From Candidatus Latescibacterota bacterium (GTDB taxonomy: Bacteria; Latescibacterota; CBDEFO01), in assembly GCA_965248755.1 (NCBI GenBank), contig OZ252149.1:3136001-3200000 (forward strand): a DNA stretch of 64,000 bases. The letters run 5' to 3'. The position numbers were made by a program, and so were the translations under genes. The notes beneath the pieces are model-generated. The model searched no databases. It was not told the DNA's origin and saw only the letters and a program-made list of their open reading frames with translations. Below, piece after piece: positions 17,624 to 29,927 of the stretch. The first letter of the stretch is position 1, and every line of letters begins with the position of its first letter.

Positions 17624-18724
17624 GTGCTGATGGAGCTTATCTTTTCTCCTCGATCCCTAGGTAGTGTAGATTACAATCTCGTACCAGATAGATTCGATGC
17701 CCCTGCTGGCTTATCGGGGACGATAGTAAGTCTTACTGATGCTGCACTTACTTTAAGAATTGCTCTAAATTTGGATGTTCCAACTCCAGAGCAGTCCCGC
17801 GCTGCCGATGCGAATGGAGTGGGAGGCGTGACCCTTACTGATGCCGCACTTGTCTTGAGGTCCGCCCTCAGTCTCGATGCTACATGGCCTATAGGTAAAT
17901 TCTGGGTGTTTGAACCTGACACCGCTGAGTTTGTCTCATTACGCGCAGATACAGTTCAGAATTTCGCATCTATTCTTGTGGGCGATGTTAACGGTAGCTT
18001 GAAGGACATCGCTGCTGCAAAGGTAGTCGCGAGGGAGTCCCATATTCAGGTCGGCATAGGGGAAGTAAAGGATAAGGTCGAGAAGTTTATCACTGTTGCT
18101 TTGATGGTCAGTGAGGTCGAGGATATGTACGGCGCAGGCTTTACGATAGACTATCCCAATGATGTTCTGAGAATCAGGCACATTAAGACTACCCAACTGA
18201 CCGATGGATATATGCTGGCATCTAATTTGGATAAGGCGGACGATGTGGGGAAAGTGATATTCGGGATGATAAATGCTACTCCACTACAGGGGAGCGGTGC
18301 TATAGCTGAGTTAGTATTTGAGGTAATAGGCGAAGACGTTAGATCTGCGTCTTTTGGGTTAGTGGATGGAGATCTGTATGATCTTAAAGGACCCATGGGT
18401 GTCCAATTGTACGATGGGGAGTTTATGGCTCTTCCGGAGCAGGCTTCCTTAAGTCAGAACTATCCTAATCCGTTTAACCCGGAAACTACTATTGATTATG
18501 CTATTCCGGTCGGTAAGGAGCTAACGCCAGTTTCACTGAAGATATATAATATTTCTGGTCAAGTTGTCAGAACACTTGTGGATGAGGAGAAAGCGCCTGG
18601 TTTCTATACGGCTGTATGGGACGGTAGAGATAAGCAGGACAAAGTTGTTAGCAGTGGGATTTATTTCTACCGCATCGTAGCCGATAAGTTTATTTCTGTT
18701 AAGAAGATGGTGCTGTTGAAATAG
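17624..18724 (+). CDS. 5'-damaged dockerin + cohesin + FlgD-type C-terminal domain protein
   Basis: ADANGVGGVTLTDA dockerin-like motif, cohesin-like beta domain, LSQNYPNPFNPETTI...SSGIYFYRI...KKMVLLK; no signal peptide; begins just after the IS. Confidence 0.7.
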   Translation: MLMELIFSPRSLGSVDYNLVPDRFDAPAGLSGTIVSLTDAALTLRIALNLDVPTPEQSRAADANGVGGVTLTDAALVLRSALSLDATWPIGKFWVFEPDTAEFVSLRADTVQNFASILVGDVNGSLKDIAAAKVVARESHIQVGIGEVKDKVEKFITVALMVSEVEDMYGAGFTIDYPNDVLRIRHIKTTQLTDGYMLASNLDKADDVGKVIFGMINATPLQGSGAIAELVFEVIGEDVRSASFGLVDGDLYDLKGPMGVQLYDGEFMALPEQASLSQNYPNPFNPETTIDYAIPVGKELTPVSLKIYNISGQVVRTLVDEEKAPGFYTAVWDGRDKQDKVVSSGIYFYRIVADKFISVKKMVLLK

Positions 18725-18811
18725 TGTCCTATGATCTTCTCTGAGACATAATAATGACAGGTGAAACATGGTTGAATGACTTAAACGCTTTCTGATAAGG
18801 GTGAAGCGGTT

Positions 18812-21800
18812 ATGAACACTTTAAAGCTGCTGTTGCGGTCAGCTATTCTTCTAACTCTCTCTGTAAACGCCTTATATGCTCAGTATGGTGAGCCGTTCGC
18901 AGTAAGCCTGACCGGCATAGACGGCAGCTCCACTATCATAGCCAATCCCGGAGAACAGTTTCAAATTGAGGCAAGGGTCAGTCCGGTAACTAAAGGCCTA
19001 TTCGGATTCTCCTCAAAATTTGGGTTTGACCCTAATGTTATCGAGATGGTAACAGAGTTTGGGCAACCGATCATAGTGCGTGTTCCGCCATTGCCTGGTA
19101 ATCCCACACCTGCTGGTGGTCTGGTAGCTGGCACAACTGACACGCTTAGTATGGGCGTTGTCGCATCAGATGGTGTTGGTGATTCGCCTGTTAGTGGTCC
19201 GATTCTTAGGATTACGTTTAGAGTGAAGAGCACAGCTACTCCTGGTGATTCGAGTCCGCTTAATTTGGTTAATACTGTTGTTAGTGTAGACACTCTTTTG
19301 GCATTTGGACCCTTTTTTGGTGTAGACATTCCTGCGGATACTCTTAGAAGCGCGGTAGTGCAGGTTCCTCCAGATACCACTGGTTCTGTCATTGATGTCT
19401 CCCCGACAAGTATAGATTATGGTGTCGTATTGGTAGGTGGTAGTTCTGACAGTACGATAAAGATTAAGAACGTAGGCAACGGGAACTTAGTCTTAGGGAC
19501 TCTGTCCATTACAGGCACTAATGCAGGTGAGTTTTCTATTTTTACTCCTCCCATTATAACTATCGCTCCGAGCGATAGCACTAATGTTGTCATAAGGTTC
19601 TCACCTCAGTCGGGTGGAACAAAATCAGCCACTTTGGTCATTCCGAGCAACGATCCAAATAAGCCATCTGTGAACGTACCGTTGACTGGTGCAGGTGTCT
19701 CCCCTAAAACTATAACAGTAACGGTAACGGATGCTGTGGGCAATCCAGGAGATCTGGTGAAAGTGAAGGTATTCGTGGAGCTGCAGCCTGAGGCTACCCT
19801 CGGCTTGTCTGAAATGGATATCAAGCTTAACATTGATCCGACAGTCATCAAAGTGGCGGGCACATTTATAAAAGACATCACCACTTTGCTGCCGTCATTC
19901 AGTAATTTCGCTACAGTCACCAATAGTGACAGTACGATTCACCTTATAGGCGCTCAGGGATCGGGTATTGCGCTAACATTCGCAGATTTGGGGCTTCCTG
20001 GAAACCCTGAAGCTGCCTGGGAGATCGGTTTCAACGTAGTAGGAAGTCCAGGGGATGTCAGCCCGATCACCGTAAATCTGGTAACGTCGGGTTTATCTAC
20101 GGGCCCTCGTGGGTCCACGAACACTGCACTTAATCCAGTAGATATTGCTGTAAATGGAAGCTTCAGTATACCTGTGGTCATCTCCAAAACTACAGTAGTG
20201 GCGGCTCGCACGACTCTCAAGGCCGACGGAGCTGATACTACGCTAATTACAGTAACTCCGAGAAAGGCCGACGGTAGTAAGATCAGTACCACTCTAAATG
20301 TGAGCGTTAATACAACAGCAGGTTCCGTTGGGGGTGTAACCGCTGAGACTGATAGCACATATACGGCTGTTCTGACCGCATCAAATGTTTTCGAGACAGC
20401 TGTGGTTAAGGCTATTATCGCTGGACAAGTGGCTCCTGACTCTGCGGTGGTGGTTTACCAACCTGCCCCTGATTCTCGATTTGGTGAGCCGTTTACAGTA
20501 AGGTTGACCGGTACTGACGGGGATACTACTATTGTAGCCAATCCAGGAGAGGAGTTTCAAATTGAGGCGAGGGTCAGTCCGGTAACTAAGGGCTTATTCG
20601 GATTCTCCTCTAAATTTGGGTTTGACCCTAATGTTATAGAATTGGTCACACAGTTTGGGCAACCGATTATAGATCGTGTTCCTGCATTACCTGGTAATCC
20701 TACACCTGCTGGCGGTCTGGTAGCTGGCACTACTGATACGCTTAGTATGGGAGTTGTCGCATCAGATGGTGTTGGTGATTTTCCTGTGGGTGGTCCTGTT
20801 CTTAGTATTACGTTCAGAGTGAAGAGTACAGCTAATCCTGGGGATTTGAGTCCGCTCAATTTGGTTGATGCTGTTGTTAGTGTAGATACCCTTTCGGTAT
20901 TTGGACCATTTTTTGGCATAGACATTCCTGCGGATACTCTTATAAGCGGAATGGTGGAGGTTATTCCAGTTACCACTGGTGCTGATATTGATTTCCCCAC
21001 GAGAAGTATAGATTTTGGTCCTGTTCAGGTAGGCAGCAGTGTGGACAGTACGCTAAAGATTAAGAACGTAGGCAACGGGAACTTAGTCTTAGGAGCTCTG
21101 TCCATTACAGGTACAAATGCAAGTGAGTTTTCTATTGTTGTTCCTCCAAGTACGACTATCGCTCCGAGCGATAGCACTAATGTTGTCATAAGGTTTTCGC
21201 CTTCGTCAGATAGTGCAAAGTCTGCCACTTTGGTCATTCCAAGCAACGATCCGGATAAGCCATCTGTGAATGTACCGTTGACTGGTGCAGGTAATCTTCC
21301 CTCTGCCCTTCAGGTTAGCATGCCGCATATTACGGCGTCTCCGGGTGAACTCATTTTGATCCCAATACAGATAACAACTCCGGGGCGCTTTGCTATCTCC
21401 TCAACTGAAATGTTCATTAGCTATGATTCTGACGTTACAAGAGCGCTTGAAGTAGTTACTGCTGGCACACTCACCGAGGGATGGGAGCTTATTTCCTTCA
21501 GGCATTCTTCTGGAATACTAACCTCTATTGATACGGCAAAGGTAGCTATGGCAACGCCCGTTGATACACTCACCGGGCCTGGCACTCTTGCCTTCATCAG
21601 AGTTAGCATCCCCCATACAGCTGCCCAAGGCGCTACCACACCCCTTGCTTTCCAGCGTCTTCTGTTTAATGATGGAGATCCGTCCGCGGTGACACAGAAT
21701 GGATCGCTCACTGTTGTTGCTATTCTAGGAGATGTCAGCAGTAATGGGAGAGTTGGTGCTTTTGATGCGTCGTTGATTCTCAGGGAGGTGGTGGGGCTTA

Positions 21801-22654
21801 TCACCTTACCTGATCCTGAATGGCCACACTTCACTTTATCTGTTGCCGATGTAAGCGGTGACGGGACGATCTCTCCTTTGGATGGAGCGCTCATCCTACG
21901 GTTCGTTGTTGGGATCACAGACCGCTTCCCTGTGCAGGCAGGACGATTTCCCAAATTTGTCTCTTCTGAAAGAACCATTCGGTTAGGAGAACAAGAGAAA
22001 TTACGTGATGGCTATTTCCGCGTTCCGATCTCTATAGATGAAATGGATGAAGTGCTTGCAGGCAAGATTCAGCTTACCTTTGATCCTTCGCATGTCACTG
22101 TAAAGGAAGTCTTGTCCGTTGGGTTAACCGCAGATTATCTTTTTGAAAGCAATATCATCCCCGATAGATTCAATCGGGGAAAGGATAAGATCATCATTGC
22201 CTTTGCAGGAGTGAAACCTCTCTCAGGAAGCGGTGAAGTTGCACATATTATCCTTAAAAGTGATACGATGCAGGAAGATATAATGGGAAGTGTTTCTCTG
22301 GAGATGGTAATTTTGAACGAGGGGCAAATCGGTGTGCTTATTGTTGGTAGTGAGGAGAAACAGACGTCGTATCCAGATACTTACCGATTATTTCAGAATT
22401 TCCCGAATCCTTCCAACCCAGAGACGACAATTCGGTATTATCTGCCCTCCTCCACCCCTCTCACGCTGACGATCTATAATCTGTCCGGACAGTTGATTCG
22501 GACACTGGTAGACGGACAAAGATCAGCCGGTAGCCACTCAGTGATATGGGATAGCACGGACGACACCGGAAATCCTGTGGCGAGCGGAATTTATCTCTAT
22601 CGGGTGGAGGCAGATGGATTTGCGCAGACGAGGAAGCTGATATTGATGCGGTAG
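18812..22654 (+). CDS. Large secreted multi-cohesin / Ig-like (ASPM-type, invasin-like) / dockerin protein with FlgD-type tail
   Basis: Signal peptide; IKNVGNGNL...SNDP Ig modules; LKADGAD Big-like domain; GDVSSNGRVGAFDA/ADVSGDGTISPLDG dockerin; QNFPNPSNP tail. Confidence 0.82.
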   Translation: MNTLKLLLRSAILLTLSVNALYAQYGEPFAVSLTGIDGSSTIIANPGEQFQIEARVSPVTKGLFGFSSKFGFDPNVIEMVTEFGQPIIVRVPPLPGNPTPAGGLVAGTTDTLSMGVVASDGVGDSPVSGPILRITFRVKSTATPGDSSPLNLVNTVVSVDTLLAFGPFFGVDIPADTLRSAVVQVPPDTTGSVIDVSPTSIDYGVVLVGGSSDSTIKIKNVGNGNLVLGTLSITGTNAGEFSIFTPPIITIAPSDSTNVVIRFSPQSGGTKSATLVIPSNDPNKPSVNVPLTGAGVSPKTITVTVTDAVGNPGDLVKVKVFVELQPEATLGLSEMDIKLNIDPTVIKVAGTFIKDITTLLPSFSNFATVTNSDSTIHLIGAQGSGIALTFADLGLPGNPEAAWEIGFNVVGSPGDVSPITVNLVTSGLSTGPRGSTNTALNPVDIAVNGSFSIPVVISKTTVVAARTTLKADGADTTLITVTPRKADGSKISTTLNVSVNTTAGSVGGVTAETDSTYTAVLTASNVFETAVVKAIIAGQVAPDSAVVVYQPAPDSRFGEPFTVRLTGTDGDTTIVANPGEEFQIEARVSPVTKGLFGFSSKFGFDPNVIELVTQFGQPIIDRVPALPGNPTPAGGLVAGTTDTLSMGVVASDGVGDFPVGGPVLSITFRVKSTANPGDLSPLNLVDAVVSVDTLSVFGPFFGIDIPADTLISGMVEVIPVTTGADIDFPTRSIDFGPVQVGSSVDSTLKIKNVGNGNLVLGALSITGTNASEFSIVVPPSTTIAPSDSTNVVIRFSPSSDSAKSATLVIPSNDPDKPSVNVPLTGAGNLPSALQVSMPHITASPGELILIPIQITTPGRFAISSTEMFISYDSDVTRALEVVTAGTLTEGWELISFRHSSGILTSIDTAKVAMATPVDTLTGPGTLAFIRVSIPHTAAQGATTPLAFQRLLFNDGDPSAVTQNGSLTVVAILGDVSSNGRVGAFDASLILREVVGLITLPDPEWPHFTLSVADVSGDGTISPLDGALILRFVVGITDRFPVQAGRFPKFVSSERTIRLGEQEKLRDGYFRVPISIDEMDEVLAGKIQLTFDPSHVTVKEVLSVGLTADYLFESNIIPDRFNRGKDKIIIAFAGVKPLSGSGEVAHIILKSDTMQEDIMGSVSLEMVILNEGQIGVLIVGSEEKQTSYPDTYRLFQNFPNPSNPETTIRYYLPSSTPLTLTIYNLSGQLIRTLVDGQRSAGSHSVIWDSTDDTGNPVASGIYLYRVEADGFAQTRKLILMR
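18887..21292 (+). repeat. 810-bp intragenic direct repeat (18887-19696 and 20483-21292)
   Basis: Near-identical cohesin + Ig module pair at DNA and protein level. Confidence 0.92.
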
Positions 22655-24507: not shown

Positions 24508-24535
24508 GAACTTTTGAATTCCCCGCGGTGTCTTA
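24508..24535 (+). promoter_or_regulatory. Candidate ECF-type promoter upstream of the ECF sigma gene
   Basis: GAACTT-N16-GTCTTA. Confidence 0.5.
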
Positions 24536-24630
24536 TGTAGTGAAAGCCTTTTCCCACAAAAAAGTTCTTCCCCGATTGAATCCCCAATAGCATCAATTGG
24601 GGATCGGAGATAGACGAAGATAAAAGGGCT

Positions 24631-25236
24631 TTGATGACACAATCCGATCGAGACCTCATTGGGAAGATTCGGGATCGCGATGCCAACGCCTTCGAGACGC
24701 TATTTGTGCGCTACAGGGAGATGGTCCGCCGACACTTGGCGAGCATAGTGCACGACGAGGATGGGGCCGACGACCTGGTGCAGGAGGTCTTTCTGCGGGT
24801 ATGGACTCGCGCAGAGCAGTGGAACGGCCGGGGGGCATTTAAGGCGTGGCTCTTCCGCATCGCTACAAACCTTGCACTTAACCACCTGCGCAGTCTGCGT
24901 AGGAGAAGACAGCAATCTCTCGACATCTCAGCGGATCCAGCCGACGACGACGACGAAAGTCCTGTCCCCGGATGGATGATCGACGCCTCGTCACTCGGAC
25001 CTGATGCGGTGCTTGAACAGGCCGAACAGCACGACCTACTCCAGGGTCTTATCGATAGGTTGCCCGAAGAAAAGCGCGAGGTTTTCCGGATGGTGCACGA
25101 GGTGGAGGTGGACATTCGGGATGTCGCCCACGCACTTGATATCCCAGAGGGCACCGTAAAATCGCGCCTGCACTACGCCAGGAAACATCTCGCTCGAAAA
25201 TGGAAGGAAATAGCGATAGAATGGGAGGATATGTAA
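24631..25236 (+). CDS. ECF RNA polymerase sigma factor
   Basis: Region 2 ADDLVQEVFLRVW...FKAWLFRIATN; region 4 LPEEKREVF...IPEGTVKSRLHYAR. Confidence 0.96.
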   Translation: MMTQSDRDLIGKIRDRDANAFETLFVRYREMVRRHLASIVHDEDGADDLVQEVFLRVWTRAEQWNGRGAFKAWLFRIATNLALNHLRSLRRRRQQSLDISADPADDDDESPVPGWMIDASSLGPDAVLEQAEQHDLLQGLIDRLPEEKREVFRMVHEVEVDIRDVAHALDIPEGTVKSRLHYARKHLARKWKEIAIEWEDM

Positions 25237-28200
25237 TGGCACTGGATATATCTGCGTTTTGGCATAGGGAATCGTTCGACCGGTTTTTGAAGGACCAGTT
25301 ACCCCAGCTCCTGGCTGCTCGGATGCCGCTTGTCGCCTATCATGTCGAATCGACCGGCATCTACACCTGTCACGTTAAGGTTGCTTTTGGGTCTGCCTCC
25401 GGAGACGTAGACGTCGAGTACACTGACCTTCCTCAACCGGACGAGGAAGGTATCTTCGAGGTCGAAAGCGTAAAGTATGTGGTCGTCCCGATAGCCTTTC
25501 AAGAGGAGTTAGACCTCGCCGAGATCCGCTGTGTCGGCGAACAGCTTTACGACTACTTTGAAGAGCGCCTGGGCGAAGCGCCGGAGGACTTACCATGGGA
25601 CGAGTCGCTCGCGCGAGCCTGGCTTCCGCTCAATGTGTGGATGCGTGAATTCCTGCACGCGGACCTACCGTGGGACGGAAATATAGTGCAAACGGCCCAC
25701 ACGCTCCATGATCAAAACTGGCTCGACAGGCATGCGCATCTGCGGCGCATCGTAGTTATGGACCCAAAGAAGATGTTCACACCTGGGCACCTCGGCCGCA
25801 CCTGTCCCTTCGAGACGCCGGAGGGCCCCAATATCGGTCGAATCCTAAGCATCGCCATGGGCGCGGAGATCAGCGATGGGAAGCTCGTCATTGTCAATGA
25901 TAAGCCTGAAGCTTCCATCGGTCTTTCAGCGTCTATGGTCCCCTTTCTGGAGCACAACGACCCGAACCGACAGCTTATGGGGGTCAACATGATGCGTCAG
26001 TGGTTCGTGCCGGCGGAGGTGGAACCTGCGCTCGTCCAGACCGGAAATGAACCCGACGCACCCGGCTTCTGGTGCGGGCGCAACCTGCTGACTGCCTTTG
26101 TCTCATGGGGTGCGGACACCTTCGAAGACGGCATCGTGGTGGGCAAATCGTGCGCCGAGCGCCTCAACTACCCCCATCCCGTCGAAGTGGGAGACAAGAT
26201 CAGCAACCGCCACGGAACCAAGGGCGTTGTGGCGAATATCCTGCCCGACAAAGAAATGCCGCACCTCGCCGATGGCACTCCGATAGAACTCGTTTTCAAC
26301 TTTATCAGCGTTCATTCGCGGATGAACCTCGGTCAACTGCGTGAGGCGCTAACAAGCCGCATCGCGAAAGCGGAGGGAGCGCCAGTCGTTGTGCCCCCAT
26401 TCGGCGCGCCGGGTGAACGTGAACTTCGCGAACGCCTTGCAAAGGCCGGACTTCCTGAAGACGGGATGGAGGTCCTCACGCTCGGACGCGATGGGCTGAA
26501 ACTGTGCCGGCCGAGCACAGTCGGATGGGTCTACTGGGGACGGCTCAATCACCTGGCGCGCAATAAGATATTTGTGTCTACCGATCACCATAAGCGCTCT
26601 TCAAAACAGGGCGAACTTGAGTATTATGCACTACGCGACGTCGGCACATTTGAAAACCTGATGGAGCATTTCAACACGCGCGCCCTCCGGCGGGACGATG
26701 CGGATAAACTCGCAGATCGCGTCGCAGAAGGCGCGGTCGAACAGGCCGGCCCGCCGACTCCCGGGTTCTCCGAAATAGCTCGGCGTCTTGTGGCTGGGGG
26801 GATCCAAGCAGAACTCGAAGGTGAGAAGCTAACGTTCAAATTTGCCAAACCCGAGGGCGATACTCTCAAGCTTGCCCGTCCAGTTGCGCATCCGTGGATA
26901 TGTGATCAAGAATTAGATGAGATCGGCGCTTTTGATGAACTTTCCGAATACCGCAATCTCGCCGAGGTCAACGCCAAAGCAGAACGCATACTCGCAAGCG
27001 ACGCTCCCGAAAGCCTGACCCGCAAAGCTTTTGAACAGCTCCAAACCCACGTGGGAAAGTTCTTCGACGCTCTCCTTGGCCCTCCCCACCTGCGCTTCGG
27101 CGAAAACTCACTCTTCAGCGGGCGAACGGTGATCTCGCCGGGGGCGGACCTTCGGATCGACCAGTTGGGACTTCCGGAAGAGATCGCGTGGACGCTCTTT
27201 GGGCCACTTGTAAGGCGAGAACTCAGCGTAGGGGCAGACTCGCGTGTCTGCCCTCCAGATTCGGGCGAACACATGGGTTCGCCCCTACATAAAGAGGAAG
27301 TAGACACCAGAAGCCCGCGTGCAACGGAGGAGCTCGACGAGATAATGGCGCGCTCGTGGGTCCTTCTACAGCGCATTATGCCCACGTCGTTCCTCGCGTT
27401 TCACCCCGTGCGGTGTCCAGGTCGCACTATCCATATCCATCCGCTCGTGTGTAGCCTGATGAACGCCGACTTTGACGGTGATCAGGCCGCTGTCTTCCTG
27501 CCGATCACCGAGGGCGCACAGCGCGAGGCTGGCGAGCGTCTGTCCGTCGCCGGTCACCTTGCGCGCGACCCGGAACTGCTCAAGTCACTGCTCCCGACGC
27601 ATGAAGCGATGTGGGGCGTTGCGAGTCTGAGCCTTACACCAAAAGGGCGCGAAGAGGTCTCAGAGCTTGCAGGGACTGACGTGACTGCACCCGACGGTAT
27701 CATCACGAGAGACTCGCTTGCCGAGGCGATGAAAGGCGTCCTTGAGTGCGATGGGATCGATAAGACCCTCGAAGTGCTCGAACGGCTGATGCGGCGAGGA
27801 TTTGAGGTCGCAAAGGAATCCGGAGCGTCCATTAGCCCGTTCATCGGGTCGAGCTTAAAGCGCTCGCCAGAGCCAGAAGAGGGTGACGCTGAGATGTGGG
27901 ATGACTACGCGGAGGAGCTTGTGGAACGGATCGCAGGACGCACGGACTTTGAGGACAACGATATGGGTCCGCAACTTCTTGCGATAAAGAGCGGCGCACG
28001 AGGTCAACTGCGCCAGCTTGCCTACCTGGTCGGGGCACGGGGCACAGCTACGGATGTCCGGGGGAGGGACGTACCGATCCGCCGCGGATATTCCGATGGC
28101 CTGACGCCCCAGGAGATGTACGCCGCTGTGGTCGGCGCACGGGAGGGACTTGCCGAAACAGTGCTGGAGACGTGGACGCGGTTTGGACTCGAATTTCATG

Positions 28201-28370
28201 AGGCAAGACAGCCGAAAGGCTTCAACTTCCTTGCGCGCGCAATGCGGGCAAAGCGCCCCGGCATCGTCTTCGCTCGCGCCGCGGCAACGGGCGAGATCGA
28301 TCCACTTACGGACGTCGACAGTCGCCTGTTCGTCGGACTACCCGCAAAATTAGTAGACAGCAAACAGTAG
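25236..28370 (+). CDS. Compact single-chain RNA polymerase beta/beta-prime fusion protein (~1044 aa)
   Basis: RpoB motifs GRTCPFETPEGPNIG, PFLEHND..R.LMGVNMMRQ, FED, GDKISNRHGTKG, SRMNLGQ, RLNHL, GELE, then RpoC motifs SGRTVI, HPLVC..NADFDGDQ, SGARG, GAREGL; TAATG overlap with the sigma stop and GGAGG RBS. Confidence 0.9.
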   Translation: MALDISAFWHRESFDRFLKDQLPQLLAARMPLVAYHVESTGIYTCHVKVAFGSASGDVDVEYTDLPQPDEEGIFEVESVKYVVVPIAFQEELDLAEIRCVGEQLYDYFEERLGEAPEDLPWDESLARAWLPLNVWMREFLHADLPWDGNIVQTAHTLHDQNWLDRHAHLRRIVVMDPKKMFTPGHLGRTCPFETPEGPNIGRILSIAMGAEISDGKLVIVNDKPEASIGLSASMVPFLEHNDPNRQLMGVNMMRQWFVPAEVEPALVQTGNEPDAPGFWCGRNLLTAFVSWGADTFEDGIVVGKSCAERLNYPHPVEVGDKISNRHGTKGVVANILPDKEMPHLADGTPIELVFNFISVHSRMNLGQLREALTSRIAKAEGAPVVVPPFGAPGERELRERLAKAGLPEDGMEVLTLGRDGLKLCRPSTVGWVYWGRLNHLARNKIFVSTDHHKRSSKQGELEYYALRDVGTFENLMEHFNTRALRRDDADKLADRVAEGAVEQAGPPTPGFSEIARRLVAGGIQAELEGEKLTFKFAKPEGDTLKLARPVAHPWICDQELDEIGAFDELSEYRNLAEVNAKAERILASDAPESLTRKAFEQLQTHVGKFFDALLGPPHLRFGENSLFSGRTVISPGADLRIDQLGLPEEIAWTLFGPLVRRELSVGADSRVCPPDSGEHMGSPLHKEEVDTRSPRATEELDEIMARSWVLLQRIMPTSFLAFHPVRCPGRTIHIHPLVCSLMNADFDGDQAAVFLPITEGAQREAGERLSVAGHLARDPELLKSLLPTHEAMWGVASLSLTPKGREEVSELAGTDVTAPDGIITRDSLAEAMKGVLECDGIDKTLEVLERLMRRGFEVAKESGASISPFIGSSLKRSPEPEEGDAEMWDDYAEELVERIAGRTDFEDNDMGPQLLAIKSGARGQLRQLAYLVGARGTATDVRGRDVPIRRGYSDGLTPQEMYAAVVGAREGLAETVLETWTRFGLEFHEARQPKGFNFLARAMRAKRPGIVFARAAATGEIDPLTDVDSRLFVGLPAKLVDSKQ
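27228..27288. repeat. GTAG-type REP doublet inside the polymerase-like ORF
   Basis: GTAGGGGCAGAC..GTCTGCCC-spacer-GGGCGAAC..GTTCGCCCCTAC. Confidence 0.85.
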
Positions 28371-28494: not shown

Positions 28495-29885
28495 AAAGTC
28501 CGAAGCAATCTCAAAAACACTTTCTATGGTCATTGCGAGGCAGCGTGGCCGCTCTGCTGGGATGGCTGAAAGCCACGGAGGTTGTGGTAAACTGTTAGTT
28601 GAGTGTGGCAGGCAAAAGAGGTTATTTCTACCGTTAGGCGTAAGATCAGAACATAAAAGGAGGAAACATTGAACCAAGTTCTTGATGACACCAAGAAAAC
28701 GTTTCGCAGTCTGCTCGACGAAAGCACTGATCATCAATGCATTATCGACTTGCTCGTATCTCTTCGGGAAAAGGTCGATTTGTCGGTGGACGATACTGGG
28801 TGGGCCTTGTGGAATATTTGCGACCAATACGCACTAATGCGGGATGCAAAGAACCAGTACACTTATCAGTCCGAGTTTCACGAGTGGGCCAAAGCCAATC
28901 TTCCCCCTTCGAGGTTTCACTGGGTTGTCTCGGACGGGACGCAGGCACTCAGTCTGATTGATGGCGGCTATCTCGACTTCTGGTGGCGATGTTACAACCT
29001 CGCCAACGAGCAATGCCCACGAGATGCTAAGAACCGCGGCGCCCGATTCGAATCGCATAGAGCCAATGCAGCTTCATATACTCACTTTCGGGAATTCAGT
29101 CGTGCTGAAACCGCCCTGAATGCAATAGAGGAACTCCTTGCGGAGGATCAGTCCTGGAGCAACCGCGAATTCGCTGCAGCAACATACTCAACTCTCCTGG
29201 TTGACTTTTACAATGTTTCGGAGCAAAGAGACAAACTCGCACAAACAGAGGGAACCCTTGAAAAGGAGCTTGATGATTGGCTTGGCCGAGCAGGCGATGT
29301 AGAAGACGCACCGGAGGGCCCTTTGCTAGGGAGTTGGGACCAACTGAATGCAGATAGGCCACCGGCGGCGATTTTCATTGCAATCAACAACACCGCGTGT
29401 GCTTTCACCAGAGCGAAGCAATTCCCGGATGCAGAACGGTTGTTCCGCATTTTGCTGGAAAGAAACAGGATTCTAAATGCCTATGGCCAAGCGCAATATC
29501 TACAATCATGTTGGGGGAACAGGCGCAACAAGGATGAAATTGTTGATTGGCTGGACGGCTCCAAGCAACTAAACCCACAAAATCTGAAAAGATTCGCACC
29601 ATCGCTCATAGATGTCGTCAAAGATGAACGTCCGGATTTCGCCTAACAATGCGCTCCCCCTGACTGGCAATTCTCTGGTGCTCATTGCCAGCACCTACAC
29701 AAAGTGTACCAAAAAGGGAAACAAAACTTACCGAAACGGTACACAAAGTGTACCAAAATGGTACACTCATCTCCCGTAACTCGTTGTCTTGCAATGTGGT
29801 GCAAAGTCCGAAGCAATCTCAAAAACACTTTCTACGGTAATTGCGAGGCGGTGTGGCCGCTTTGCTGAGATGGCTGGAAGCCACG
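28495..29885. repeat. 83-bp imperfect direct repeats (28495-28577 and 29803-29885) of the GTCATTGCGAG/GCAATC palindromic family
   Basis: AAAGTCCGAAGCAATCTCAAAAACACTTTCTA...AAGCCACG in both copies. Confidence 0.85.
28669..29646 (+). CDS. Hypothetical helical protein (possibly TPR-like) in a cassette-like unit
   Basis: 325-aa ORF with AGGAGG RBS and TTG start; no recognisable motif. Confidence 0.7.
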   Translation: MNQVLDDTKKTFRSLLDESTDHQCIIDLLVSLREKVDLSVDDTGWALWNICDQYALMRDAKNQYTYQSEFHEWAKANLPPSRFHWVVSDGTQALSLIDGGYLDFWWRCYNLANEQCPRDAKNRGARFESHRANAASYTHFREFSRAETALNAIEELLAEDQSWSNREFAAATYSTLLVDFYNVSEQRDKLAQTEGTLEKELDDWLGRAGDVEDAPEGPLLGSWDQLNADRPPAAIFIAINNTACAFTRAKQFPDAERLFRILLERNRILNAYGQAQYLQSCWGNRRNKDEIVDWLDGSKQLNPQNLKRFAPSLIDVVKDERPDFA

Positions 29886-29927
29886 AAGTGGGCGTAGTAA
29901 TCTGACGGGATGGGGTGGTGCCCCTGT

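Follow-up and report, generated by a model that had tools for sequence, protein, structure and literature searches.

In textbooks a bacterium has a single RNA polymerase, whose trigger loop is regarded as essential for useful catalysis. Among the described systems closest to the one reported here, Orf6 of the yeast killer plasmids is presented in PMC2919709 as a half-size Rpb2::Rpb1 fusion, for which that account gives no homology to the trigger, rudder and lid elements. In YonO, as portrayed in PMC5467207, no homology to the trigger loop is detectable, yet the enzyme is active and error-prone, and the five enzymes whose structures are compared in bioRxiv 2022.12.01.518664 are described there as all retaining the N-terminal portion of that loop. 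According to Table 1 of PMC2889878, canonical enzymes from which the trigger loop is removed are 12,000- to 62,500-fold slower and less selective. The present work concerns P0001, a single open reading frame (ORF) in a 64,000-nucleotide stretch of a Candidatus Latescibacterota bacterium genome (contig OZ252149.1, positions 3,136,001 to 3,200,000; hereafter the window), which looks like an unconventional polymerase rather than a broken gene.

The gene, its cassette and its family

P0001 encodes a chain whose N-terminal half matches RNA polymerase beta and whose C-terminal half matches beta', with 38% of the size of the two E. coli subunits (1044 vs 2749 residues). The gene starts about 860 bases before position 26100, where the original prediction had placed the start. 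Just three RNA polymerase domains are listed for it by Pfam, with no Rpb1_5 match, and its scores lie well under the NCBIfam cut-offs (171 vs 801 bits and 125 vs 964 bits). The host genome, a single 4.54-Mb contig, has an ordinary rpoB (1315 aa) and an ordinary rpoC (1387 aa) in the usual operon, and P0001 is therefore an extra copy; it sits outside rpoBC, and no alpha gene is found within its cassette. The upstream gene encodes a sigma factor with Pfam Sigma70_r2 and r4_2 matches above cut-off and 110 bits for TIGR02937 (cut-off 42.9). With regions 2 and 4 only, about 200 aa and an autoregulatory-type promoter, it belongs to the extracytoplasmic function (ECF, group 4) sigma factors.

Among the matches listed in the first protein search there were 120 full-length relatives of P0001, with 54-91% identity, and a profile search added more distant ones. 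The nearest named relative is 91% identical and comes from another Latescibacterota assembly (L007). The family alignment, to which all counts out of 185 refer, was drawn from the first 200 protein ids and comprises 185 proteins of 930-1110 residues, without the fragments and longer forms, which were handled separately. The family is undescribed, in the sense that nothing on it was found in the open-access literature (subscription papers being beyond reach). In the ECF census of PMC7826278, one supplement file searched with five terms gave 0 matches, and the database names of the relatives are "hypothetical protein" or lists of domains.

Genome scans located 59 loci in Latescibacterota, Poribacteria, Planctomycetota, Chloroflexota, Armatimonadota and Hydrogenedentota. 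Eight of these start within or at the gene; the other 51 include upstream DNA, and a member of the same sigma family lies upstream of the polymerase in 50 of them. The exception is L034, without sigma, and in L027 and L065 the sigma gene is damaged or set apart. Within the host phylum, the mini-polymerase is present in 64 of 168 genomes (19 of the 52 of good quality). Both genes occur in 58 genomes, the polymerase match alone in 6 and the sigma match alone in 3; that is, 58/64 polymerase-positive genomes have the sigma and 58/61 sigma-positive ones have the polymerase. No further neighboring gene is conserved beyond close kin. The ratio of nonsynonymous to synonymous substitution rates (dN/dS) is 0.12-0.23 in 12 out of 12 family pairs, which indicates purifying selection. 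As regards copy number, G075 carries two complete cassettes, G041 one complete cassette plus a partial polymerase match, and G140 a partial match only.

Modules lost and residues kept

The profile alignments used E. coli beta and beta' (locus L071) as reference and placed 970 of the 1044 residues of P0001, on about 545 of the 1342 positions of beta and 449 of the 1407 of beta'. Module names and boundaries follow common usage, and positions are those of the alignment. Missing from beta are the lobe (150-442), fork loop 2 (535-545), 588-644, 708-781, the flap (826-1053), 1130-1177 and the switch 3 loop (1250-1263). From beta', the stretch with the zipper and zinc finger (30-102) is missing, and so are those with the clamp head and lid (about 119-263) and with the rudder and the initial half of switch 2 (315-339), as well as about 516-566, a piece of the rim helices (651-678) and the stretch with the second zinc site, the trigger helices and loop and the jaw (about 801-1325). 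The loss is wholesale, and little remains besides the two barrels, the hybrid-binding cradle, the funnel and the clamp base. The original prediction had the flap, zinc finger, rudder and trigger loop absent and fork loop 2 and switch 3 shortened, and in all of these it was right. Its picture of a loss selective for a few modules was an understatement, given the beta lobe, the two segments 588-644 and 708-781, the clamp head, the lid and the jaw.

The deletions, when mapped across homologues, recur over the 185 proteins with junctions of near-constant length. For instance, the link that replaces the flap has 20 residues between D298 and G319, against 248 in E. coli (beta D814-G1063), with a family median of 20 and a maximum of 45. 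A CxxC motif within residues 518-570 is found in none of the 185, the anchors on either side of the lost zinc finger being weak (hhalign P=15% and 54%). In the model, only seven residues separate the bridge helix from the next helix (998-1004), and there is therefore no room for trigger helices; the distance from the start of the bridge helix (G955) to the C-terminal segment (R1001) has a median of 44 residues and does not exceed 58 in the family. No trigger-loop equivalent was recovered after the bridge helix when residues 960-1010 were compared with beta' 900-1140 (hhalign P=0.07%). The bridge helix itself had been thought to end after GAREGLAET. On the contrary, it does not stop there, at residue 975, but runs as one continuous helix in the model and is aligned by hhalign to beta' 769-800, its second half being diverged in sequence only (at the R798 position, Arg is found in 123 of the 185 and His in P0001). 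Of the features of a canonical core, P0001 thus has the bridge helix and lacks full-length beta and beta' matches at curated cut-offs, the trigger loop and the flap for sigma region 4.

The full-length model is confident and compact. Its beta half aligns with the solved beta chain 8i23_C over 519 residues (VIA Z 30.1; root-mean-square deviation, rmsd, 2.8). The beta' half, folded alone, matches 6omf_D with 496 of its 522 residues (Z 26.2, rmsd 9.0) over a range from beta' 16 to about 1368, and it is on this structural range that the beta' N- and C-terminal anchors rest, as they are weak by sequence (P 11-54%). The VIA Z values, about 30 with beta chains and about 26 with beta' chains, support two double-psi barrels; a viral fold library gave weaker, distant polymerase matches only. 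Judged from sequence and predicted fold, the mini-polymerase is of the two-barrel kind and lies outside the canonical core and, as far as tested, outside the phage single-chain groups.

The residues of the active site are retained. All ten catalytic positions (beta' 425, 460, 462 and 464; beta 688, 814, 1065, 1073, 1106 and 1237) are kept in 132 of the 185 proteins, and at most one is changed in 171. In detail, the metal A aspartates D745, D747 and D749 are kept in 173, 183 and 182 proteins, D298, K321 and K329 of barrel B in 169, 178 and 175, and R713 (beta' R425) in 171. The hybrid-facing positions H526, R529, P564, E565, N684, R687, Q688, H1237 and K1242 are kept in 168-183. The R346 and R352 positions of beta' are kept in 149 and 170. 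The funnel residues G920, R922 and R362 of P0001 (beta' G729 and R731, beta R1106), matched to yeast numbers by our own assignment, are found in 97, 137 and 180; PMC2919709 gives such residues as an additional feature of the DNA-dependent two-barrel enzymes. R1001 and R1004 are found in 184 and 170. Eight residues are called invariant among two-barrel polymerases in PMC2919709, and P0001 has seven of them. The eighth, the proline after R425, is displaced by a three-residue deletion: the column two residues after R425 (427) is Pro in 176 of the 185, and in P0001 a Pro lies three residues after the Arg. The rifampicin pocket is diverged, as had been noticed, with His, His and Val at the positions of Q513, D516 and S531; H526 and R529 are kept in P0001, and S531 is not conserved family-wide.

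An unconventional catalysis, as the original prediction had proposed, would fit this combination of metal-, nucleoside triphosphate (NTP)- and RNA-binding residues under purifying selection with a lost trigger loop, the price of which in canonical enzymes is at least 10^4-fold by the values tabulated in PMC2889878.

The sigma factor, its promoter and the role of the mini-polymerase

The motif GAAC-N15-16-GTGTC, or a near variant, lies upstream of the sigma gene in all 50 regions (spacer of 16 bases in 47 and of 15 in 3), and shuffled upstream regions gave 0.69 matches on average and three at most. In the host genome the cassette has the only strong site, with a weight-matrix score of 35.4 bits (the site being in the training set) against 20.8 for the next, and neither the pattern nor the matrix revealed a convincing second site of a wider regulon there. 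In five other genomes the exact pattern gave 14 matches, against one for a reversed control pattern. Five of the 14 precede the cassette, one precedes an ABC (ATP-binding cassette)-permease-like gene and eight lie, by reading, inside or away from gene starts. A scan for sigma-70 promoters and terminators gave results at chance level.

In one genus, an ABC exporter (L254 and L263, from G081 and G076) or a tetratricopeptide repeat (TPR)-like gene of 381-396 aa (L255 and L256, from G084 and G085) is placed between sigma and mini-polymerase; the G076 sigma carries an internal deletion. The only clear sites precede cassettes, exporter or TPR-like genes are inserted in some of them, and the gene downstream of P0001 is distantly related to the inserted TPR-like gene; so the regulon is the cassette with occasional cargo. 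A near-identical second promoter copy in G005 (L080:1501), 24 kb from the cassette and before an ABC-permease-like gene, is a possible extra regulon member. Two candidates were discarded: a sigma-polymerase gene fusion suggested by the open-frame figure of G111, where a stop codon separates the two, and an ECF promoter before the larger fusion in L245, where the match is part of a different palindrome.

Eight beta' clamp-helix residues are given in PMC10216364 as contacts of sigma region 2, and region 4 is described there as normally resting on the flap tip. The clamp helices of the mini-polymerase are homologous to those of beta', as predicted. Of the eight contacts, R278 (152 Arg, 17 Lys), R281 (150), the hydrophobic 282 and 291 (Leu in 174) are kept or conservative family-wide, and the other four (R275, L285, E295 and M298) are changed. 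The core-binding D47, Q50 and W57 of the sigma are invariant in 48 out of 48 sigmas. A complex prediction of P0001 residues 232-1037 with the sigma scored 0.18 and 0.21 against a mark of 0.32 and is not used as evidence. With homologous helices and half of the contacts changed, sigma docking on the mini-polymerase is putative. Of the original claim that the enzyme can still dock a sigma, the homology of the helices holds and the docking itself does not follow; the fixed -35 element and spacer, the standard sigma region 4 and a mini-enzyme without flap fit better with a promoter read by the host core.

The explanation that we favor, tentatively and with a little less than even confidence, is that P0001 would be a live polymerase, though slow and of low fidelity, that works on opened or primed templates, and the main output of an autoregulated sigma circuit that uses the host core. 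The sigma would read its private promoter with the normal core of the host, whose flap would place region 4 on the -35 element. The mini-enzyme would bind Mg, NTP and the RNA:DNA hybrid. The missing trigger loop, lobe, jaw, clamp head, lid and rudder would leave it poor at holding or opening the downstream duplex and at stripping off the RNA; it would extend primers or make short RNAs, slowly and with poor fidelity, on open templates like bubbles, gaps, R-loops and single strands. The clamp helices would be kept partly as structure and may bind sigma weakly as feedback. A stress or repair role is a guess from the ECF control. That the contacts to metal, NTP and RNA are strictly conserved speaks in favor of chemistry, and the loss of the downstream channel, the lid and exit-channel parts argues against ordinary promoter-to-terminator transcription. 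For these reasons the slow polymerase is ranked first, followed by a holoenzyme of sigma and mini-polymerase, then by an anti-sigma or decoy and last by decay.

That sigma docks on the mini clamp helices and the pair, having neither alpha nor flap nor trigger loop, transcribes from the private promoter, and perhaps from weak sites, as a second, inhibitor-resistant machine seems unlikely. The sigma gene directly upstream in almost every locus and the co-occurrence of the two genes would be explained in this way, as would the clamp helices and dock region being kept while almost all other surface modules were lost, the retention of R278, R281 and the 291 position in 150-174 of the 185 and the unconserved S531 of the rifampicin pocket. 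However, the -35 element and its spacing are near invariant, although such a holoenzyme would have neither flap nor zinc finger by which sigma region 4 could be positioned. It would lack lobe, jaw and clamp head for the downstream DNA, half of its sigma contacts are changed, and its only clear target, its own operon, leaves little for it to do.

ECF operons usually carry an anti-sigma gene directly after the sigma gene, and P0001 is translationally coupled in exactly this position, with no other conserved gene in the cassette. It could accordingly be asked whether it is a core mimic that would hold sigma, or titrate an inhibitor or phage protein directed at RNA polymerase, the active site serving as a sensor of NTP, hybrid or drug. 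Trigger-loop loss, which should cripple catalysis, and a catalytic aspartate changed in some lineages (10 of the 185) also speak for such a role, which we nevertheless consider improbable. Conservation is higher at the catalytic and RNA-binding residues than at the sigma contacts, a sigma with its own operon as sole target would have nothing to switch on, and the altered rifampicin pocket would be a poor sink for rifampicin. In a test for membership of an anti-sigma class, P0001 showed no Pfam domains besides the three of RNA polymerase, and the 970 residues placed in the alignment all fall in beta or beta'. Should P0001 be inactive, it would represent an anti-sigma or decoy made out of the polymerase itself, for which no precedent was found.

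Several observations count against the slow polymerase that we favor. The switch-2 lysine (yeast Rpb1 K332) is said in PMC2919709 to be common to all DNA-dependent two-barrel enzymes, and the position that we equate with it (beta' 334) falls in the deleted 315-339. The D460 position is Asn in the ten proteins mentioned, and that of N458 is Asp in 32 of the 185. The gene is in pieces (two or three frames) at 4 of the 59 loci. Although low, the family dN/dS is well above the values usual for housekeeping rpoB. P0001 itself has lost three residues after R713, carries Asn in place of R346 and His in place of R798, and shows in one pair a dN/dS of 0.32 for the beta' half against 0.17 for the beta half; it may be decaying. 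Since R425 is the main ribose selector according to PMC7862312 and its loop is shortened here, P0001 may be either less selective or decaying.

A decaying paralogue or an assembly artefact as a general explanation is very improbable. The split genes and, in P0001, the motif deletion together with a repeat insertion are what it would predict. Against it stand the same length and junctions in 185 proteins from several phyla, the low dN/dS, the presence in 64 of the 168 phylum genomes, and a sister species with the identical motif deletion in an intact frame. For the family as a whole, phylum distribution, dN/dS and constant junctions have already refuted it. The coordinates of the cassette and of its parts are collected in table 1.

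Table 1. Features of the mini-polymerase cassette and its surroundings (window positions)
Feature	Position	Strand	Remarks
Private ECF-type promoter: GAAC, 16-base spacer, GTGTC	24508-24532	+	conserved purine-T-purine run 7-12 bases further downstream
ECF sigma factor, 200 aa	24634..25236	+	regions 2 and 4 only; stop codon overlaps polymerase start codon
Single-chain miniature beta-beta' polymerase P0001	25236..28370	+	1044 aa; model: predicted local distance difference test (pLDDT) 92.4, predicted template modelling score (pTM) 0.89
Beta half, residues 1-530	25236..26825	+	protrusion, fork, barrel B, hybrid-binding region, beta clamp; without lobe, fork loop 2, flap, switch 3 loop
E297-D298, 20-residue link replacing the flap, basic loop with K321 and K329 (beta 813-814, 1065, 1073)	26124..26225	+	profile alignment, family spans
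Beta/beta' junction and beta' N-terminal strands, zinc finger removed	26823..26906	+	weak profile anchors; model aligns from beta' 16
Clamp helices, residues 567-612 (beta' 264-309)	26934..27071	+	hhalign P=97%; model helices 570-587, 592-613
Genomic palindromic repeat inserted in frame (about 20 residues that the family lacks)	about 27228-27296 (residue part 27234..27293)	+	low pLDDT; 40 blastn matches in genome, self included
R713 (beta' R425), then loop three residues shorter than family	27369..27401	+	only P0001 and sister P0002, 2/185
Catalytic aspartate loop N743, D745, D747, D749 (beta' 458, 460, 462, 464)	27462..27482	+	family conservation
Full-length bridge helix, residues 958-990	28107..28205	+	model, hhalign; second half sequence-diverged
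C-terminal clamp-base segment (about beta' 1319-1357), joined directly to bridge helix	28227..28346	+	weak profile E 0.003; range of C-half model
TPR-like 325-aa protein	28669..29646	+	occasional cargo, not a fixed cassette part; Pfam TPR_16 below cut-off

A genomic palindromic repeat is also inserted at window 24569-24611, in the leader between promoter and sigma (32 blastn matches, self included). Downstream of P0001, the TPR-like protein has 22% identity (E 2e-9) with the gene between sigma and polymerase in G084 and G085, and no match in L007-L065. Its gene is flanked by an 86-base direct repeat (28495-28580 and 29803-29888, 91% identical), partial copies of which are found elsewhere in the host genome, and is absent at the corresponding place in the sister genome L007. 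Further upstream, the region 17624-22654 encodes two secreted-type proteins (366 and 1280 aa) with C-terminal parts that are, by eye, cohesin/dockerin-like and FlgD-like; the larger one has an internal repeat.

Larger fusions, origin and described systems

Larger single-chain forms were also found. P0253 (2309 aa) and P0264 (2241 aa) comprise two alpha-like parts, beta and beta'; together with P0258 (1948 aa), they fuse alpha-like domains, beta and beta' and are close to a whole core enzyme in one polypeptide. A second undescribed family (P0268 and P0271-P0303; loci L245-L248 in G155, G103, G102 and G159) consists of 34 clusters of 1580-2080 residues, many with an N-terminal alpha domain, in which lobe and zinc finger are reduced and the trigger-loop domain is kept. 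G102, G103 and G155 carry both this family and the mini-polymerase. All larger fusions (1580-2310 residues overall) keep the Rpb1_5 (trigger-loop) domain and part of the flap region. No ECF sigma was seen within 1.5 kb upstream in the three loci with upstream DNA (about 630 bases only for L245), and two locus scans for larger fusions gave ordinary rpoBC loci only.

An 18-base palindromic, operator-like site occurs in one or two copies within 140 bases of the large-fusion start in L245, L246 and L247 (five sites in three loci; background 0.007 per 300 bases). Control by LexA was considered and rejected, as the palindrome is found in none of 10 lexA/recA upstream regions and in none of 50 mini-cassette ones. 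In L264-L267, a palindrome like TGAAC-N4-GTTCA overlaps, by eye, the lexA promoter of the phylum and resembles the Gram-positive LexA box. In a Vicinamibacterales assembly (L069:4516-14196), a 1841-aa beta-beta' fusion is followed by a 291-aa protein (no Pfam match, C-terminus sigma-54-like by eye), a sigma-54-activator-like AAA protein and another AAA ATPase.

A tree of 615 core columns places the mini family and the larger fusions on one side of a branch with 98% support (Shimodaira-Hasegawa-like approximate likelihood ratio test, SH-aLRT), and 21 standard or housekeeping-like sequences with the host's own genes on the other; the split is unchanged without L069 and the longest mini rows. The trees are unrooted, use subsets of 40 and 36 of 62 rows and may be subject to long-branch attraction. 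We infer an order of module loss across the fusions. In a bolder and rather doubtful proposal, the mini-polymerase would be a natural bacterial RNA polymerase without alpha, flap and trigger loop, a 115-kDa chain that, with or beside its own ECF sigma, would synthesize RNA, or primers of mixed ribo/deoxy composition, with two-metal chemistry alone. A series of reductions that starts from alpha-alpha-beta-beta' fusions of 2240-2310 aa and passes by lobe-less forms of 1580-2080 aa would end with it, at about 1020 aa, in a hidden clade of chromosomal accessory polymerases.

A chromosomal, selected copy without trigger loop, at 37-40% core identity, amounts to a natural deletion experiment. It makes testable the minimal transcribing core, the dispensability of alpha and flap, the recovery of catalysis without the loop, and a private core for an ECF sigma.

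By its sequence, the mini-polymerase is a direct descendant of bacterial RpoB/RpoC. It shares with them, the host copies included, the fold, the order of parts, the catalytic residues, the clamp helices and the bridge helix, with the above identity to the host genes in core blocks. In E. coli they form two chains of 2749 residues together, whereas the mini-polymerase is without lobe, flap, zinc finger, lid, rudder, trigger loop and jaw. The larger accessory fusions (P0253, P0264, P0258, P0268/P0271-P0303 and that of L069) are likewise single-chain beta-beta' enzymes, and differ in being longer and in keeping the trigger-loop domain.

YonO, P23-45 gp64/gp96 and phi14:2 gp66 resemble the mini-polymerase in being single chains of about 100 kDa. 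They share few residues with cellular enzymes, whereas the mini-polymerase is a recognizable pruned bacterial core, chromosomal and with a cognate ECF sigma. It is set apart from them by their descriptions, and cellular beta and beta' give its own best matches, in sequence as well as in fold. Orf6, compared through the description in PMC2919709, is similar in that two large subunits are fused, about half of them is deleted and homology to trigger, rudder and lid is not reported. On the other hand, Orf6 is eukaryote-derived and cytoplasmic, has no sigma, and is said there to keep switch 3 and to lack switches 1 and 5, whereas the mini-polymerase shortens switch 3 and keeps the C-terminal clamp-base segment.

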